A DNA stretch of 63,098 nucleotides, filler included, from Craspedostauros australis (GCA_030167865.1; 13 parts of 13 records of this genome joined end to end with filler, not necessarily neighbours in it), one strand, 5' to 3'. Numbered from the whole stretch's first letter, positions 16,941-26,236 are shown. Numbers and translations are program-made. Notes: a model not told the origin generated them from the letters alone.

Positions 16941-17160
16941 TCACCCTCTGGCGAACACAACCTCGCTCACCTGCGAAGAGGCAATAGCAACAAAGGATAG
17001 CAAACCGAAGGGCCATTTGATCCAATCCCGTCCATCACGTTAATGCTGCCTATTCTGCTCATGCTGTCTATTCTGTTCATCTGTTGAGTTACCAATAGCA
17101 GACTAGCATCGACACTACCATCGACACTAACAACAACACCACCACCCCCCAACAACAACC

Positions 17161-20100
17161 ATGACGGGCGTCGGAGCTGTGTTCGAGCTGTACGAGAGCT
17201 GGACGGACAAGCGTGACAAGAAGAAGAAGGCGAAGTCAGAGAGGCAACTGCAGGCCAACTTGGCAGCCCAGGAGGCCGAAGATGACCAGAGCGGCAGCAC
17301 CCAGCAGAAGCAGCAGAAGAAGGAGGAACCGCAGATAGGATACCGCATCGAGGACCGGCTGGCCGCCTTCCAGGAGCACAAGCGGCGGCAGCGGCAGCTG
17401 GAGCTGCACCAGAGCGCGGGCGGCAGCACCGGGAGGCCGCCCACGAAGCTGCAGTCGCTGGCCTCCACGGACGACGAGTACATAGACGAGGCCGTCTTCT
17501 ACCACGCCTGCATCCGCAACAACGACTGGGACGGTCTCTGGGAGCTGCTGCTCAACTACGACTTCCAGCACTACCAGGAGGAGCACAAGAAGCACCAGGA
17601 GATCGTCAAGAAGGCCACCGCTGCCGCCGCTGCCAAGCCCAAGCGCCGCCTCCGCATCGTGCGCGGCGCCATCAACGTCAAGAACTACCTCCTTCCCGAG
17701 AAGGACGACGACGACGACCCGGACCTGCTCATCAACGACCCCACGCGCCCCATCTCGCCGCTGCTGGGATGCGACGCCATCGGCAGGACGTCGCTGCACT
17801 CCCTCTGCGCCATCCGCGAGGTCGGCGATCGCATCCTCCTGCGCACGCTGCAGTCCGAGAAGATGGCCGCGCAGGTCCGCGACGACTACGGACAGCTGCC
17901 GCTGCACATCGCCACCAAGAGCGGCAAGTCCATCAAGGTCATCGACAAGCTCATGCGGGCCAACATACCTGGCATCGCGCAGGAGGATGCGTCGTCGCGC
18001 ACGGCGCTGTGGTACTGCATCCAGCGCACCATCCTCACGGCGGAGTACGGCATGGAGCATCATGAGGAGATTCCCGCCGTCAGGCCCGTGGACGATATCG
18101 ATCAGCTCGGACTTGAGCATGATAGTGGTCATGACGCAATGCCCATCGCGCACGCGTCCATCGTCGATGCTTCCATGGTCTCTGACGACAGCCTGTTTGG
18201 TGGCAGCAGGTCCACGTACCACGACAACAGCAACCACAACGGCAACGACAACGGCAACGCTCATGACGATGCGACCGTCATCACGGCAACGCACGGCAGG
18301 AGCTTCCGTGGAGACTCGTCGATGCGGGATTTCACGTCCCGTTCCACACGATCGTACTACCGCAACCAAGACGATTTCGTGGAGAAGGAGGACGGGACGA
18401 CGCATTATTCCACCGTCGCGGATGCCGTGGTGACAGCCATCGACGAAGATGACGATAATGCTGGCCATGGCCATGACGATGATGCCGCTGGTTTGGGCAA
18501 GTCGATGGCATCCATCATCTCCAACGTCGGCCAAGTCAACGACCCGAGAGCGCACCTCATGATGCAGTCCATGTCCCTGCGTTCCACGCGCACCGCCATC
18601 ACCACCAAATCATCGGCCTCGGTGCCCGAATCATCCTCCAAGCTATTGACCTCCAAGATTCACAAGATCAAATTCACCTCCATCACCAACGACCCCTACG
18701 CCAAGACCACGTGGGGCATCCCGCGCACGCAGGATCAGATTCAATGGCAGGAGCTGCAGGAGAATCACTGGAAGAAGGTGCGATTCATGCTGTCGGCGTA
18801 CTCGGCGAGACGCAAGATCTTCAAGCCCAGCGAGCGAGAGCTCCTCCTGTGGGTCATCGATCACGCCGCCCCGCCCTCCGTCATCGAGGTCGCCCTCTTC
18901 GCCTCGCAGAAGCTCCTGCAGACGGATCCCACCCTGGCATCGGCGGCGCTGCATCTATTCATGCGCCGACAGTATCCCATCAAGAACCTGCATCTCCTCC
19001 TGCATCATTTCCCCGTCCAGAACAAGGAGACCATGGAGGCCGCCAGGCGATTGCTCACCAAGTACTACACCTCCGGGTGCCAGCTCGCGGACGACGACAC
19101 CATCCCCACGTTCCGCAAGGAGATGGAGCAGAAGGCGCTCGGCAACCGCAAGCCATCGCTCGCCTGCGCGGAGTGGTGGGACAAGTGCACGGCCCTCATG
19201 AAGCTCTGCGGTCACGAGAACGTGGAGACCAATAAGACCAAATTCCGCAAGGTTCATCTCCTGCATGCCGCTCTATCCAACCCGGAGACGCCACCGTCGC
19301 TCATCCAGCTCTGCATGGTCCTGTCGCCAAAGTCGCTCGCGCTGCCCCATCCAGCCAACAACGCCCTGCTCATCCATCTCATCTGCAAGTCGTGGCGCTA
19401 CAATCTCTTCCCCCATTCCAAGGGCCTTGGCATAGACTTCCCCATCGACCCGGAACCGCCGATGGATCAGGTGGTCCGCATCATCCTCGCCTCCGATCCC
19501 TCCCTCACGCGCAACCGATACGAAAAGAGACTGCCGTTGCATCATGCCATCGCAAGCTACAAAACATGGGACTTCCTCCAATCGCTGACGCAGATAGACC
19601 GCCTCACCTTATCCCAACGCGACCCAATCACCAAGCTCTATCCGTTCCAACTCGCGGCGACCCTCATCACAAACGAGAACAACAACAACAGCCTCTTCCC
19701 CACGAACGCCGTCGTCATCAACCGCAACGCCGCGCTGTGGGCACACGCGCGTCATTCTCAGGAATGGACCCACATGACGCCCAGACAGCGCGCCATCGCG
19801 GTGCAGAGCATCGTCGAGAAGCAGGAGCTGGAGCAGTTCAGCATCACGTACCAACTGCTGCGCATCTTTCCGCAGGCCATTGCCAGCGGGGCCTCGTTGG
19901 CGCAGCCATCGGCCTTTCGTGACGCGACTGGCCGCGGTATGGTCTCGGCGCATTATTTGCAGTTCTGTTACAGGCACATGGTGCCGGATGTCATCGGGGT
20001 GGAAGACGAAGACGATGACGACGAGGAGGAAGGAGAGGGTGAAGTCGATGCTGATGGAGACAATGAGGACAAGGCGAAGGCGAAAACCAAAGGCAAAGGC

Positions 20101-21963
20101 AAGAAAGGAAACGATGATGAAGATGGGAGCAACGCGGATCCCGACAGCGACGACGATAGCAGTGTTGACGACAAGAAGAAAAAGAAGTCAAAGAAGAAGG
20201 ACAAGAAAAAGAAAAAGAACAAACAGAAAGAGAAAGAGAAGGAAAAGAAGAAGAAAAAGCGAGGCAAGAAGGAGAAGAAGGGCAAAGCGCAACAGACGCA
20301 AGATGAAGATGGTGAAGAGGAGAAGGTAGAGATCGGGGAAGATCAAAGGATGGCAATCAGCGAACACCAAAGCGATGATGACGCCACGGGAATTTCGACG
20401 ATGCACTCGCGGATGAACGACTACAGCTACACCATGGAGGATGATGCCACGGAATCCAAGAAGACCATGGTCAGCTCCATGAATCAGTCCTTCGCATCAC
20501 GGAGCTTCGTTGTGCGCGGCGATCTGATCATGACAGAGGACGAGATCGAAGACTGGGTACTGATTCCGCAGAACTACGACCTGATCCGGCATGCCATCGA
20601 TACGAGGGCAATCCCACCACAGCTGGGGCCATGGTGGGAACGATGCAAGTTCTGGATATGGTACTGCACTCCGACGAACTCGAGCGAGATAGCAAAGTCA
20701 CCGAAGGATTCGCTCCTGCTTCATGCGGCACTGGCAAATGAGGACACCCCTCCGATTATCATTCAGCTCATCCTGGCAATCCACCCGCTTTCGGCGTCGT
20801 TGCCATCGTTCGGCGTGCACGGGGCGTTCGAATATCCATTGCACATAGCCGCACGCACGCCAACGTACGTCGCACAAGACTTCGAAGAGCTCTCCTCAGC
20901 GTCGGCATTGCAGATGGTGCTGGAGGCATTCCCGGAAGCGGCCTTCGTGGAGAACGCACAAGGTCTCCCCATCCAAGTTGCGACCGCGGCAGGGAAGACA
21001 TGGTACGAAATGCAAGCGCTGGTGCGTGTGACCAACCAAAACCCGGATGTTTCCAAACGCGCCGATAACTTGATGGTGGGTGCGCAGCAACCAAATCAGA
21101 GAGGTGCCGGGGGAAGCGCCGCAGCCGGCCATGTCGCGCAAGCTCCTTCGGCAAGCATGGCACGGGCCTCAACGAATGCAAACAGCGCACGTGCACAAGG
21201 CATGGCTGGCAACACTGCACCACCTCAGCAGCAGCAGCAGCACCAGTCGGACCCGCGCCTCGTGGCTGCAATGCCACCGGTTGTCGATGAAGTTGAAGCG
21301 GAGCCGCCGGCATTTGACTTGGGACTCACGCAACCGTCGACAAGTCAGGCATGGAGCGATCTGCGCAAGAACTTGACCAGCTTCGACTTGACGGGCAGCT
21401 GCGGTGTGGGCGATGCATCCGACGCGATCGCGGAATCCTTCGATGAAGTGGAGTACGAGTACAACGACGGTGGCGGCAGCAATGACGGTGGTGGAAATGG
21501 GAGTATGCCGTACAGCCAGCAACAATTCCAAACGACCGAACCAATGTCGACGAGGACGCCATCCGACAACCTCCTTGGTCCTATGTCGAACCATACGGCG
21601 GACGATTTCGCATTTGCATCTACTGGAAGCTCAGATGATGACTCGTACTCGGCACGCTACGACGCGGATGCGGCCTCATTCGACACGGACACGAGCTCAT
21701 GGAGATCCATGTCACAAAATGAGGGTGCTGGTCGTTGGCATCAGTCGGCCTCCTCCGCGAACATGTCGACGTACTCATCTGCCAGCTCCACCCAAGACTT
21801 CGCCCGGCAAAATCTGGATACGACCAACATCAATGCGGCTGCGTGGGACATCAGCACGATTCCGGACATTCAAGAACTCAGCGGTCCAGCACCAAGTCCG
21901 CAGGATGAGCCGGCCATGAGACGACCAACAAGCAAGAATCGTGTGCGAAGGAAGCAAGTGTGA
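17161..21963 (+). CDS. Large ankyrin-like (LPLH-type) repeat protein, 1600 aa
   Basis: Uninterrupted ORF with GRTSLH, GQLPLHIA, RLPLHHAI, LYPFQLAA and YPLHIAA motifs, an acidic/lysine-rich insert and a disordered tail. Confidence 0.85.
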   Translation: MTGVGAVFELYESWTDKRDKKKKAKSERQLQANLAAQEAEDDQSGSTQQKQQKKEEPQIGYRIEDRLAAFQEHKRRQRQLELHQSAGGSTGRPPTKLQSLASTDDEYIDEAVFYHACIRNNDWDGLWELLLNYDFQHYQEEHKKHQEIVKKATAAAAAKPKRRLRIVRGAINVKNYLLPEKDDDDDPDLLINDPTRPISPLLGCDAIGRTSLHSLCAIREVGDRILLRTLQSEKMAAQVRDDYGQLPLHIATKSGKSIKVIDKLMRANIPGIAQEDASSRTALWYCIQRTILTAEYGMEHHEEIPAVRPVDDIDQLGLEHDSGHDAMPIAHASIVDASMVSDDSLFGGSRSTYHDNSNHNGNDNGNAHDDATVITATHGRSFRGDSSMRDFTSRSTRSYYRNQDDFVEKEDGTTHYSTVADAVVTAIDEDDDNAGHGHDDDAAGLGKSMASIISNVGQVNDPRAHLMMQSMSLRSTRTAITTKSSASVPESSSKLLTSKIHKIKFTSITNDPYAKTTWGIPRTQDQIQWQELQENHWKKVRFMLSAYSARRKIFKPSERELLLWVIDHAAPPSVIEVALFASQKLLQTDPTLASAALHLFMRRQYPIKNLHLLLHHFPVQNKETMEAARRLLTKYYTSGCQLADDDTIPTFRKEMEQKALGNRKPSLACAEWWDKCTALMKLCGHENVETNKTKFRKVHLLHAALSNPETPPSLIQLCMVLSPKSLALPHPANNALLIHLICKSWRYNLFPHSKGLGIDFPIDPEPPMDQVVRIILASDPSLTRNRYEKRLPLHHAIASYKTWDFLQSLTQIDRLTLSQRDPITKLYPFQLAATLITNENNNNSLFPTNAVVINRNAALWAHARHSQEWTHMTPRQRAIAVQSIVEKQELEQFSITYQLLRIFPQAIASGASLAQPSAFRDATGRGMVSAHYLQFCYRHMVPDVIGVEDEDDDDEEEGEGEVDADGDNEDKAKAKTKGKGKKGNDDEDGSNADPDSDDDSSVDDKKKKKSKKKDKKKKKNKQKEKEKEKKKKKRGKKEKKGKAQQTQDEDGEEEKVEIGEDQRMAISEHQSDDDATGISTMHSRMNDYSYTMEDDATESKKTMVSSMNQSFASRSFVVRGDLIMTEDEIEDWVLIPQNYDLIRHAIDTRAIPPQLGPWWERCKFWIWYCTPTNSSEIAKSPKDSLLLHAALANEDTPPIIIQLILAIHPLSASLPSFGVHGAFEYPLHIAARTPTYVAQDFEELSSASALQMVLEAFPEAAFVENAQGLPIQVATAAGKTWYEMQALVRVTNQNPDVSKRADNLMVGAQQPNQRGAGGSAAAGHVAQAPSASMARASTNANSARAQGMAGNTAPPQQQQQHQSDPRLVAAMPPVVDEVEAEPPAFDLGLTQPSTSQAWSDLRKNLTSFDLTGSCGVGDASDAIAESFDEVEYEYNDGGGSNDGGGNGSMPYSQQQFQTTEPMSTRTPSDNLLGPMSNHTADDFAFASTGSSDDDSYSARYDADAASFDTDTSSWRSMSQNEGAGRWHQSASSANMSTYSSASSTQDFARQNLDTTNINAAAWDISTIPDIQELSGPAPSPQDEPAMRRPTSKNRVRRKQV

Positions 21964-22468
21964 AGTGCACTGTATTCGTACGACCATGCAGAACAGCTCG
22001 CCATGGTGTGTGGCAGCTGAGTGTAGTGTATGACATGATAGTCTACAATGGTAGTGAAGTATTTAGAGTAGAAAAGAACACGGCAAAACAGAGTCGAGAT
22101 GCATCTCCTGAAACCAGTGATAAGAGCGTGGAACAACACGCTGTGGCACCACGTAACACCGTTCTCCTGACACAGAGTGAATAATCCTATGCTGGACCTC
22201 TATGTTTGTCTGTTGCGTGTACTACTCCAGTACGTGATGAGCTATAACACTCTCTAGAGCAGAATAATGTTATATGTATGAGGAGGTTAGAAAAGCAAAA
22301 GGTTTGCGGCGCATGGCCGTGCGCAACTCGCGAACAGGTGACGCCTGCGATGTTTGTCTGACTGATTGGTTGACCTCGCCAGTGCCCTCAACAATCTCAT
22401 CTGAGCCAACCCCGTGTTTGCCCAGGAGCTTCTTTATCACATTGATGTTGATGCTACGCTGCTGAGCG

Positions 22469-25400
22469 TTAGAGGAAATGGACGGTGTTCTTGAGCTTCT
22501 TGGCATTTATCGACCTGCCGCAATCAGGCATTCCTCCTCCAAGCTCAGCCAGTCTGTGCGTATGTGCATGTGCGATTGAATCGAGTAGAGTTGCGTTTCA
22601 TCATGCGACGGTACGCAAAACGATACACCAACGTGCGTGCAGGGGAAGCAGGCAACACCAGAAGTATGAAAAGCAGGGAGGTGAGAAGCGGAAGTGCTTG
22701 ACGTGTGCAACAGAAAACCGACACAAGCACAATACGTGCAAGGCAACACACGCACAACGATTGCAAAGGCATCCGATGCGGTACATTGCATTGTGCTGCA
22801 TTACAGCCCATGACACAAATGACACGAACAATCATCATCCTGATACCAATGCGCCTATATCTGCAGCGCATTCCAGCACGCATCAACCCGCAGCGACTTA
22901 CTTGTGTGCCATCTGGCATACGCTTGGGACCTTGATTGGTCCTGCCCAATTGGGATAGTCATGGCACAGATCCCAGGTCAGGTTGGCAAGGTGGACGTTC
23001 CTCAATGCAGGGTCTTGCTCCACCACGATGAAACGGACAGGTTTTGGCGTGCTGTATGGCGGCGCGCGACCGTTGATATAGAAGGTGTTGTAGTTGATGC
23101 CCTGGATGCCCTCGACCAGCGTCCCCGATGGAGCTCCGTACTTGCCATCTTGCTCGCCTGCCACATCCTTCGTGAGGAATTTCGTGGCGATGCGCTTCTG
23201 GCACACCACGTATGACAGCGGCACGTTCCTGGCCTTGCCTCCTGCCGTTGCTGCGCCCCCTTTCTGGCCCACAGACGTTCCGTTCAGGCCTTCGCGGATG
23301 GCCCTGATCTCCTCCTTGGCCTGCAGGTCGAATGCGGCGTCTCCGATACCATCGCGCCACACGATGCATGACATGGGGTTGACCTTGAGCTCACTCATGG
23401 CCTCCGCCATCGTCTCCTTCAGCGCCACCCCAAGATCGTACTCCATTCCAGCCTCCCTGGCGTACGTCTTGGAGTAGATCTCGATCTTTGAAGCGGCCGT
23501 CGAAGTGGACTTCTTGCTACCACCCTTGCCACCGTCGCGCACGACTTGCACGATTATTGCTGCGCAGGACGCCTTCGCGCGTCGTTCCTTGGCGATGGGG
23601 TCGTACTTGCGAGGAGCGTGGAAGACGTCGACTCCGACAAAGACTGTTGGCGTTGGCAGTGGCTTTGGTAGCGTCACGTACCACAGACGGACGCCCGCCT
23701 TCTGCAGGATTTGCCTGGATACGCCCTGCAGGATGATGTCACTGCGCTTCATGTCTCGTGGCTCGTCGTGCCGGTAGTTGCTGAAGTTGACGAACTGCGA
23801 TAGATGCCCCTTGGACGCCAGCATCTGCTTGACCACCGAGTACGCTGGATCTGTGCCTCCCTTGGGATAGTTGAAGTCCAAGACGAAGATGTTCGGCTTC
23901 TTCTCGTTGGCCATGGATTTCTCCACAGCGCCCCAGTGCTTCTCCGCATGTCCAGCTTGCACGATCTTGTACGGTCTGTCGCCGAGCCGGAAGTAGGTGT
24001 TGAACTTGTTGACGGTGTTGCGGATGCGTTGGTACACCTTGTCGGCTCCCTTGGAAATCTTCTCATTGCACACGAGCACCACGTTGAGCGTGTTGGCGCT
24101 GTTGGCTTGCACGTTGAACCTGGCCATGCCCACATTGGGTGCCCAGTTTTCGCGCTTGTGCTTGGGAATCTCCACACCGGCCGCCAGGATCTGCGGCATG
24201 GGCATGACGTTGGCTGTGGCAGGCAGCCGGCCGTTGCTCACCATGATTCCCAGTGCTGGGAGGAATCCAGACGCGCCTCTCGTTGTTTGCGCGCCGGGGA
24301 CGAGGTACTTGCGGATCTCCTCGATGGCGGCGTTGCGTTGATCTGGCTTGTAACTCGCGATCATGGGCAGCTGCTCCTTGACGCGGCGTTCGAGTTCGTT
24401 GCCGGCAACAAGCTCTGCTGGGAAGTAGATGGTGTCGTTGCGCCTTCCCTGAACAGCCACCACGGGGACGGCGTTGGGGTACTTGAGGTCGATCTTGCGA
24501 CGTTGCTTGAAGTACTGCGCATGCGACATGCCCAGACCTTCCACGGGCAGCGTTGCTGCGCTCTTGTTGAAGATGAGGTCTGTGACGGAGTAGCACTTCT
24601 TGTCGTGCATGGCGATCACCACCTCCCCGATCCATTCTCGGCGCAGCCTCTTCTGCTCCTTCTCGTTGGGGCGGAATGAGCTGGGTCTGTCGGTGATGTG
24701 GTCCAAGACGCTCATGGTGCGGACCACCTTGGCTCGAAGATCGACCGTGAGCGCCAAGTGGCACATGTTCGTCTTCTTGGATCGCACGATGCCGAATGTG
24801 CAGGATATGGCCTCGTAGACTCTGACGCCCATCGAATTGCCCTGCCGATCGGTCGGCTCGGTGAACTTCTTTGGATCAATGAACTCGGATCCCCATCGAG
24901 AGAGCCGTTCGCTGAGAGCGCGTTCCAGCGCAACGTTGACGTAGGATGAGAACATCGGAAGGGTCGCGGGTTGGGGCTTGACATCGGTCGACTTTGTGTC
25001 GGGATCGAGGTAGACTGGCTGATGCCCTTGTTGTTGGCTGTCATGGTCATGGCATGGCGTGTTGCAAAGAGCGTGATGAAGTGAGATTTACATGATACGA
25101 CAAGTACGGTGTACAGAGCATTGGATGGCATTGGATAGCACTGGATGAATGATGAGAGTACAACACTCCTGAAATGAATGGCACGATGTACCATACATAT
25201 ATGATATAACGCAAGACACAGTCACTCTTACTCATGCTCGTACGTAGAAGAGCATGATGTTGCAACTCACCAATGCTGAAGCATGGAGGAGACGTCCGTG
25301 AAGGCCTTGGTGCAGTTGGCGCAGCGCAGGTCGAAGGTCACGTCGAGCTTGCCGCCAGCAGCTGCTGCTTTGACCGGCTGCCTGAGCTCGTTGGGACACA

Positions 25401-26236
25401 GGTAGTGCACGCAGTGCTGCACTTCCAGCGCATCGCCTTCTGCCACCTTGTGTTCAATGGGTAGCTGGAGGGGCAGATTCTCTGGCTCCAGACCTGGAAT
25501 GACTTGCGACGAAAAGAAGAAGGATCCGTTGAAGAAGACGCGTCGCCTGAGATCCTTCTTGGCAGCCTCCGACATGCCAGTGAGGAGGCCGTCCCACATG
25601 CCGGCATTGAAGAGCGCCGTGCGACGATGGCGACTCTCGATCTGCCCGCCCTTGGCATTGGTGGAGTTGACGGAGTAGAGGTAGAACTTGAAGCCTGGGG
25701 TGACTGTGGCCAGGATGATGTTGGTCATGCAGGACTTGAGACCTGAGAGATCTGGTCCGCGGCCACGGCCTCCTCCGCGGCCTCCTCTCCCGCCGCCCCT
25801 TCCACCACCTCTGCCTCCGCCTCTGCCGCCACCACCTCCTTTGCTCGTGTGCAGAATGATGGTTGCAGTGGCAGTGAGGGGCAGTAAGGAAGATATGGAT
25901 ACAGAGATATAGTTTAATAGAATAGTTGTGTTGACGAGATGTTGGGATGGATTGTTTGAGATGTAGTCGAGGGGAGATGAAACGCATTGACAGACAGTGG
26001 ATGAATCTGTCGCACCCATCACACGCATCACATGTATGATACTGATAACACAGACTCCGAGTGGAGTAGTCGCATGGTATGGTGGACTTACCTCCGTAGC
26101 CGCCTCCTCCACCTCTTCCGCCGCCACGGCCTCCGCGACCTCCTCTACCGCCACCATATCCTCCGCTGTCATATCCCCGGCCTCCACCTCGACCGCGTCC
26201 GCCGCCTCGACCGCCTCTGCCGCCTCTTCCTGGCAT
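22469..26236 (-). CDS. Argonaute/PIWI-family protein, 977 aa; complement(join(22469..22553,22902..25037,25271..25838,26092..26236))
   Basis: Three GT-AG introns give a 2934-nt frame. It encodes an RGG-rich N-terminus, PAZ (HAQYFKQRRKIDLKYP..YFPAELV) and the MID pocket (YSVVKQ..SQFV..QILQKAG). PIWI motifs are VGVDVFH, WRDGIGD, VVCQKR, GTLV and PIKVPSVCQMAHKLA, and the protein ends VHFL*. Confidence 0.95.

Follow-up and report, generated by a model that had tools for sequence, protein, structure and literature searches.

Evidence for an intron-split C2H2 zinc finger conserved in an Argonaute family of diatoms

The stretch of DNA considered here, hereafter the window, comprises 63,098 nucleotides from Craspedostauros australis (GCA_030167865.1) and consists of 13 record parts joined with filler. 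On its minus strand a four-exon gene (26236..22469) encodes an Argonaute of 977 residues, composed of arginine-glycine (RG/RGG) repeats, an N domain, PAZ, and Piwi. Within this protein a short segment very probably constitutes a real and conserved C2H2 zinc finger, with C221, C224, H237, and H243 as its ligands; we put the probability of this reading at about 95%. Residues 221-243 of the spliced protein read C221-x2-C224-x3-F228-x8-H237-x5-H243, that is, C-x2-C-x12-H-x5-H. A preliminary description of this DNA had proposed just such a hidden finger, split by an intron at 25270..25038, and the proposal has been borne out: the limits of the two halves (25323..25271 and 25037..25022) are exact and the 977-residue product is confirmed. 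As had also been said, the finger is not visible in any single open reading frame (ORF), since its four ligands are complete only after exon 2 has been joined to exon 3.

The anatomy of this join is simple. Exon 2 (25838..25271, minus strand) carries further RGG repeats and an N domain of about 160 residues, and its last part (25323..25271) supplies the C-x2-C-x3-F-x8-H portion of the finger, namely C221, C224, F228, and H237, together with the bases TG of the Cys238 codon. Intron 2 (25270..25038, minus strand) is 233 nucleotides long, runs from GTGAGT to CAG in phase 2, has a guanine-plus-cytosine fraction of 0.44 (0.62 and 0.59 for the exons on either side), and divides the finger between His237 and Cys238. 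Exon 3 (25037..22902, minus strand), which encodes the end of the finger, L1, PAZ, L2/MID, and the bulk of Piwi, supplies the C-x4-H portion at 25037..25022, where the third base of the Cys238 codon is followed by four residues and His243. The end of exon 2 (...CAT TG) and the initial C of exon 3 thus make up the split codon TGC for Cys238. Other ways of reading this region were tried and rejected. Retention of intron 2 gives a frame that reads W and then stops immediately; from the donor at 25271, one of 14 AG sites (25265..24976) keeps the frame of exon 3 open; and with the acceptor at 25037, one of four GT sites does so.

Conservation carries much of the argument. A search with the exon 3 product returned 152 relatives, the best identity being 64% among the matches listed (120 of the 152). 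This search and one with the N domain provided 205 proteins that were aligned to the spliced model, and 122 of these span residues 215-250. The preliminary description had named conservation of the ligands in diatom homologs as a check, and the check favors the finger: C, C, H, and H are all kept in 118 of the 122 spanning relatives. Other positions of the finger are held nearly as tightly in the same set (F228 in 115, C238 in 111, P245 in 111). Given that the four ligands, F228, and P245 persist while overall identity among relatives is only 40-60%, the segment does not behave as a decaying relic. Among 107 distinct fingers selected by motif, the conserved non-ligand positions are R220 (94%), F228 (96%), C238 (93%), G242 (83%), and P245 (94%), and L234 is strongly conserved as well. 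Genuine spacing variants occur among the relatives, with C-x4-C, x13, or H-x6-H. Relatives derived from transcriptomes (MMETSP entries P0044, P0081, and P0120) show the motif uninterrupted, and the window model matches them without gaps. An Odontella aurita protein (P0073, UniRef) already bears the automatic name 'C2H2-type domain-containing protein'.

The sources that are named among the listed relatives are all diatoms, pennate and centric. They comprise Nitzschia, Cylindrotheca, Fistulifera, Seminavis, Epithemia, Mayamaea, Attheya, Odontella, Stephanocyclus, and metagenome-assembled genomes of Bacillariaceae, as well as MMETSP entries whose names begin with 'Chae' and 'Thalass'; a taxonomy check of four source names gave Bacillariophyceae and Thalassiosirophyceae. 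The exceptions to the four-ligand rule number four among the 122. P0153 and P0192 are spurious low-score matches, and the corresponding region of P0030 resembles a retained intron. In the fourth, P0058 from Cylindrotheca closterium, other residues stand in place of all four ligands, yet the flanks can still be aligned, and judged from the alignment this joint loss is as expected if the four act as a single unit. Likewise, in P0137, a fragment whose sequence breaks off at the intron site, both cysteines are replaced and the first histidine is kept. P0058 and P0137 thus carry degenerate forms of the finger and may stem from a paralogue in which zinc binding has been lost.

The intron that divides the finger appears in the relatives also. 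Among 207 proteins, 18 are prokaryote-style ORF calls made on the genomic DNA of relatives, and each of these reads H-W, in many cases with a Y next, before it stops or drifts at precisely the donor site of the window gene. An H-W reading that enters an intron from this codon implies that the position of the intron is shared. Conversely, eight C-terminal ORFs open in intron read-through and then carry the second half of the finger, and one scaffold of Cylindrotheca fusiformis has the two halves entered as separate proteins (P0125 and P0022). Through prokaryote-style gene calling on diatom DNA, many database entries of the family amount to half a protein, severed precisely at the finger intron (P0001-P0004, P0010, P0020, P0022, P0026, P0121-P0129, P0206, and P0207). 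Domain surveys built on entries cut in this way would consequently miss the finger. More broadly, motifs split between exons can conceal whole domains from ORF-based and from prokaryote-style annotation.

That the host protein is an Argonaute is plain from its domains. In the exon 3 translation Pfam identifies PAZ at 46.2 bits (cut-off 28.8) and Piwi at 93.9 bits (cut-off 28.9). PAZ (PF02170, E 5.2e-12) covers residues 124-227 of that translation (24667..24356, minus strand), and Piwi (PF02171, E 1.4e-26) covers residues 395-712 (23854..22902, minus strand) and extends into exon 4. The residues D, E, D, and H of the family consensus, which we take to be the Argonaute catalytic tetrad, align with the MIWI motifs, are present in the window ORF, and are nearly invariant in the alignment designated A1. 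The N domain is of a different character. A HMMER search with its 161 residues found 90 clusters among 1.84 billion representative proteins, and on that count it is specific to the family; Pfam matched ArgoN in one of 60 motif-bearing relatives (E 0.081), the ESM Atlas gave no usable match for the N domain, and a query with this domain for longer proteins gave five matches. Against solved chains the family profile scored E 1.9e-44 to 2e-40 with the PIWI clade and 2.7e-31 with the best of the AGO clade. Both this profile and the model of a relative, described below, thus fit PIWI-clade structures somewhat better than AGO-clade structures, and the family may be called PIWI-like in that sense. 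Like the PIWI-clade Argonautes MIWI, MILI, HILI, Siwi, and EfPiwi, the window protein combines PAZ and Piwi with N-terminal RG repeats, although it differs from them in having an N-domain sequence of its own and a unicellular alga, rather than an animal germline, as its host. According to a review of 2011, no Piwi-like proteins had been found in diatoms (PMC3145265), whereas PIWI-clade matches are the better ones here.

The finger appears to be an addition to this scaffold. The profile alignments to solved PIWI and AGO chains open at the first L1 helix, just past the finger, and no solved PIWI or AGO protein aligns over the finger itself, in agreement with the earlier proposal that it lies outside the standard Argonaute architecture. 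About 120 residues separate the finger from PAZ. Given where the alignments begin and the length of this gap, the finger probably sits at the N-to-L1 junction and not within the core of the N domain, as against the placement inside the N domain in the preliminary description. The suggestion of a distinct Argonaute subtype has fared well, in view of the ligands kept in 118 of 122 relatives and of an N domain with 90 relatives among 1.84 billion proteins. On the sequence evidence the finger marks a distinct family of Argonautes, seen, among named sources, in diatoms only.

Predicted structures are consistent with this picture. The preliminary description had suggested AlphaFold for the 977-residue model; the prediction was run on the relatives P0009 and P0175, where it returned a confident beta-beta-alpha finger between the N domain and L1. 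The AlphaFold2 model of P0009 (885 residues, 58 aligned sequences; 60% identity to the window exon 3 product) has a predicted local distance difference test (pLDDT) value of 89 and a predicted template modelling score of 0.86. Two strands (143-144 and 150) and a helix (154-164) form its finger around C144, C147, H160, and H166, and the finger block reaches pLDDT 91, 89, and 93, as compared with 64-71 in the preceding linker. The same beta-beta-alpha pattern recurs at pLDDT 87-95 in the model of P0175, a fragment of 147 residues. Searched with Foldseek, the full P0009 model matched MILI, HILI, Siwi, and hAgo2 at E 1e-45 to 1e-40 with template modelling (TM) scores of 0.6-0.68, the top matches being MILI, HILI, and Siwi (TM 0.63-0.68), so that the relative is predicted to adopt the bilobed N-L1-PAZ-L2-MID-PIWI fold. 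With the P0175 model VIA-align gave 21 rows that lie within model residues 61-120 (finger 85-107), and all 21 are solved zinc fingers, among them EEA1, IKZF1 ZF2, ubi-d4, and NDP52, at Z 2.6-3.8 and with the tightest root-mean-square deviations at 1.4-1.8 Å over 28-29 residues. A complex prediction between P0009 residues 136-171 and the N part and rest of the protein yielded no verdict (score 0.00).

What type of finger this might be is less clear from known families. Pfam was run on 60 motif-bearing relatives for E-values, and nine proteins were also scanned singly with scores. The commonest match was zf-C2H2_2 (28 of 60, best E 0.0012), followed by zf-C2H2_OTU1_C (22 of 60, best E 1.1e-6), zf-C2H2_4 (14 of 60, best E 0.0058), zf-C2H2_jaz (7 of 60, best E 0.021), zf-C2H2 (2 of 60, best E 0.00019), and zf-met (1 of 60, best E 0.01); no U1 or matrin family was among the Pfam matches of the 60. 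The match nearest to its cut-off was P0048 with OTU1_C, at 26.4 bits against 27, a family also recorded for P0048 among its precomputed matches, and window exon 2 by itself gave a weak match to Zf-C2H2_ZNF451_C over the truncated motif (E 0.0071). Because the finger scores fall below the cut-offs, they establish no subtype. With respect to charge, the 107 distinct fingers have a mean net value of -0.36 (range -4 to +2) and 1.76 lysines plus arginines per 23 residues. At the helix positions with which canonical fingers read nucleic acid, as assigned by the usual C2H2 helix numbering, the family has mostly D, E/G, A, and Q. The matrin, U1, or JAZ type favored in the preliminary description, a class that often binds double-stranded RNA (dsRNA), is accordingly not supported and is the weaker option: JAZ is matched in 7 of 60 relatives (E 0.021) and zf-met in one, U1 and matrin in none, and the finger is near neutral.

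Part of the record weighs against the reading offered here or bears on how far it can be carried, and it is best taken together with the explanations that it favors. That the finger springs from a wrong splice model or from chance only is an explanation to which we give almost no credence. It draws on the fact that no RNA read of C. australis crosses the junction, so that the evidence for the join at intron 2 is that of frame, splice signals, and homology. The only public contig found, from run X1 (guessed to be RNA, word share 0.12), spans 22400..22882 only and stops short of intron 2, and because it continues unbroken from exon 4 into the 3' part of intron 3 it is genomic or unspliced and uninformative on splicing. 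Yet the donor and acceptor form the unique frame-preserving pair, the joined product matches the uninterrupted transcript motifs of relatives without gaps, and 18 relatives have the intron at the same position. Chance seldom yields such a motif: when the 977-residue protein was shuffled 200,000 times, the strict pattern turned up 17 times (about 1e-4) and the looser pattern C-x2-4-C-x12-13-H-x3-6-H 432 times. It is likewise very improbable, if not quite so remote, that the segment is a relic, devoid of zinc binding and of any function of its own and retained merely as a linker. Loss of the ligands seems to have been tolerated in P0058, which has none of the four, and in the fragment P0137, which lacks both cysteines. 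In each of the nine proteins scanned singly, moreover, every scored finger match falls under the curated Pfam cut-off. The two AlphaFold2 models are those of relatives, P0009 and P0175 being 56% and 37% identical to P0124, the closest N-terminal relative in the alignments. For the 147-residue P0175 model no Foldseek match reached E <=0.001, the finger matches lying above E 3, and no VIA-align match reached Z >=5, the finger matches lying below Z 4, so that neither search names a finger subtype. The ligand count of 118 of 122 is the sole unbiased one, since the alignments A2 and A3 were picked by motif and their invariant ligands are circular. A relic, however, would hardly be expected to preserve all four ligands in those 118 relatives, across pennate and centric diatoms, at 40-60% identity.

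If the finger is accepted, its role has still to be weighed, and the choice between a structural part and contact with RNA is one that we infer. A structural or docking role at the hinge between N and L1 has, in our estimate, an even chance of being right. It is preferred on account of the near-neutral charge, the acidic or small residues at recognition positions, and the conservation of R220, F228, L234, C238, G242, and P245, none of which is a ligand; the commonest weak Pfam likenesses, those with the zf-C2H2_2 family and the C-terminal finger of OTU1, were counted in the same direction. Less probable, though clearly ahead of the explanations just discussed, is an added nucleic-acid-binding module of the dsRNA type with wide histidine spacing (JAZ, matrin, or U1), which would make contact, close to the N domain, with the duplex of guide and target or with an RNA:DNA hybrid. 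The H-x5-H spacing speaks for it, as do the zf-C2H2_jaz matches in 7 of 60 relatives and the zf-met match in one, and, to judge from known Argonaute structures, a location in the N lobe beside the domain that caps the duplex. The conserved arginine before the first cysteine, present in 94%, favors it as well, and together with frequent K or R at two other positions it could touch the phosphate backbone. The finger may face the RNA channel or pack on the body of the protein. Against RNA contact stand the weakness of the JAZ (E 0.021) and zf-met (E 0.01) matches, the lack of any to U1 or matrin, and the larger number of relatives matched by other C2H2 families. Fingers that bind dsRNA are as a rule basic, whereas these average a net charge of -0.36 with 1.76 lysines plus arginines per 23 residues. 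Canonical reading of nucleic acid by the finger seems to us unlikely.

Under the structural or docking role, the finger would chelate one zinc ion and would serve mainly as a zinc-stabilised strut, as a protein-docking surface, or as both, at the N-L1 hinge. In solved Argonautes the channel for guide and target has the N domain at its far end, and the hinge would position the domain there. The finger may, in addition, provide a site for a partner protein. Comparison with known fingers is instructive in this regard. With classical C2H2 fingers it shares C-x2-C-x12-H, the conserved aromatic residue three positions after the second cysteine, the leucine of the helix, and the predicted beta-hairpin and helix, and it fits C-x2-4-C-x12-H-x3-5-H with the conserved aromatic and leucine. 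It differs from them in occurring as a single copy inside an enzyme-like scaffold, in having H-x5-H instead of H-x3-4-H, in the acidic or small residues at DNA-reading positions, and in scores under the Pfam cut-offs. JAZ/ZNF346, matrin, and U1C fingers share the wide histidine spacing, and weak JAZ or zf-met matches occur in 8 of 60 relatives, but the scores of the window family are far below the cut-offs (13-16 bits for JAZ and zf-met against 22.6 and 21.2), there is no basic surface, and there is no U1 or matrin match. The C-terminal finger of OTU1/YOD1 (OTUD2; PF24560) is likewise a single finger added to an enzyme and, with 22 of 60 Pfam matches, the nearest by E-value, although the window finger is internal rather than C-terminal and its score lies under the cut-off; no OTU domain was found in any family member scanned by Pfam. 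The OTUD2 finger is reported to alter the linkage preference toward diubiquitin, and its binding of mono-ubiquitin was undetected by nuclear magnetic resonance (PMC3705208). That finger tunes which substrates its enzyme prefers, and nucleic acid is thus no requirement for a single finger of this kind to act.

A further and decidedly speculative view, drawn by analogy and improbable in our estimate, is that this is a diatom-wide PIWI-like Argonaute with a built-in cofactor finger, which would do in cis what GTSF1-like partners do for animal PIWIs. Such a finger would lock or sense the target-bound conformation, or would recruit silencing, chromatin, or ubiquitin machinery. GTSF1/Asterix is, similarly, a small zinc-finger module paired with a PIWI-clade protein; the likeness is one of analogy, and no homology was found or is claimed. 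GTSF1 carries CHHC fingers in tandem, stands as a protein of its own that has been reported only from animals, and engages the PIWI domain (bioRxiv 10.64898/2025.12.23.696163). If the built-in cofactor were real, the finger and the RG repeats together would suggest that a unicellular alga possesses a piRNA-like effector system.

The domain architecture of Argonautes ranks with the best conserved in RNA biology, and a finger that pennate and centric diatoms alike keep in place at the N-L1 junction would be an addition that defines their lineage. A literature search that covered few subscription journals found no zinc finger described in a diatom or other Argonaute, and one review calls the silencing effector proteins of diatoms canonical in domain composition (PMC3145265). 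For the dissection of small-RNA silencing in diatoms, the four ligands constitute a sharp, mutable handle.

The remaining parts of the gene, all on the minus strand, are as follows. Exon 1 (26236..26092) begins with ATG at 26236..26234, has 48 RG/RGG-repeat codons and one further base, and ends at the donor GTAAGT. Intron 1 (26091..25839) is of the GT..AG kind in phase 1, and the frame is continuous once it is removed. The N terminus presents about 75 residues of RG/RGG repeats distributed over exons 1 and 2 (26236..26092 and 25838..25756). In animal PIWIs such RG repeats are sites of arginine methylation that are read by Tudor proteins. Intron 3 (22901..22554) has the donor AA|GTAAGT and the acceptor CAG and lies in phase 2, and exon 4 (22553..22469) contributes 27 C-terminal residues and the stop codon; over exon 4 and the adjoining 3' part of intron 3 the X1 contig shows no break, although it omits a single base at 22682. 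A tblastn search of the window with the 977-residue model found this gene alone. On the plus strand a convergent neighbor (17131..21963) is an open frame of 1610 codons, with only a sub-threshold ankyrin match (E 0.00012; 23 bits, cut-off 27.3) and long acidic and lysine-rich stretches of low complexity.

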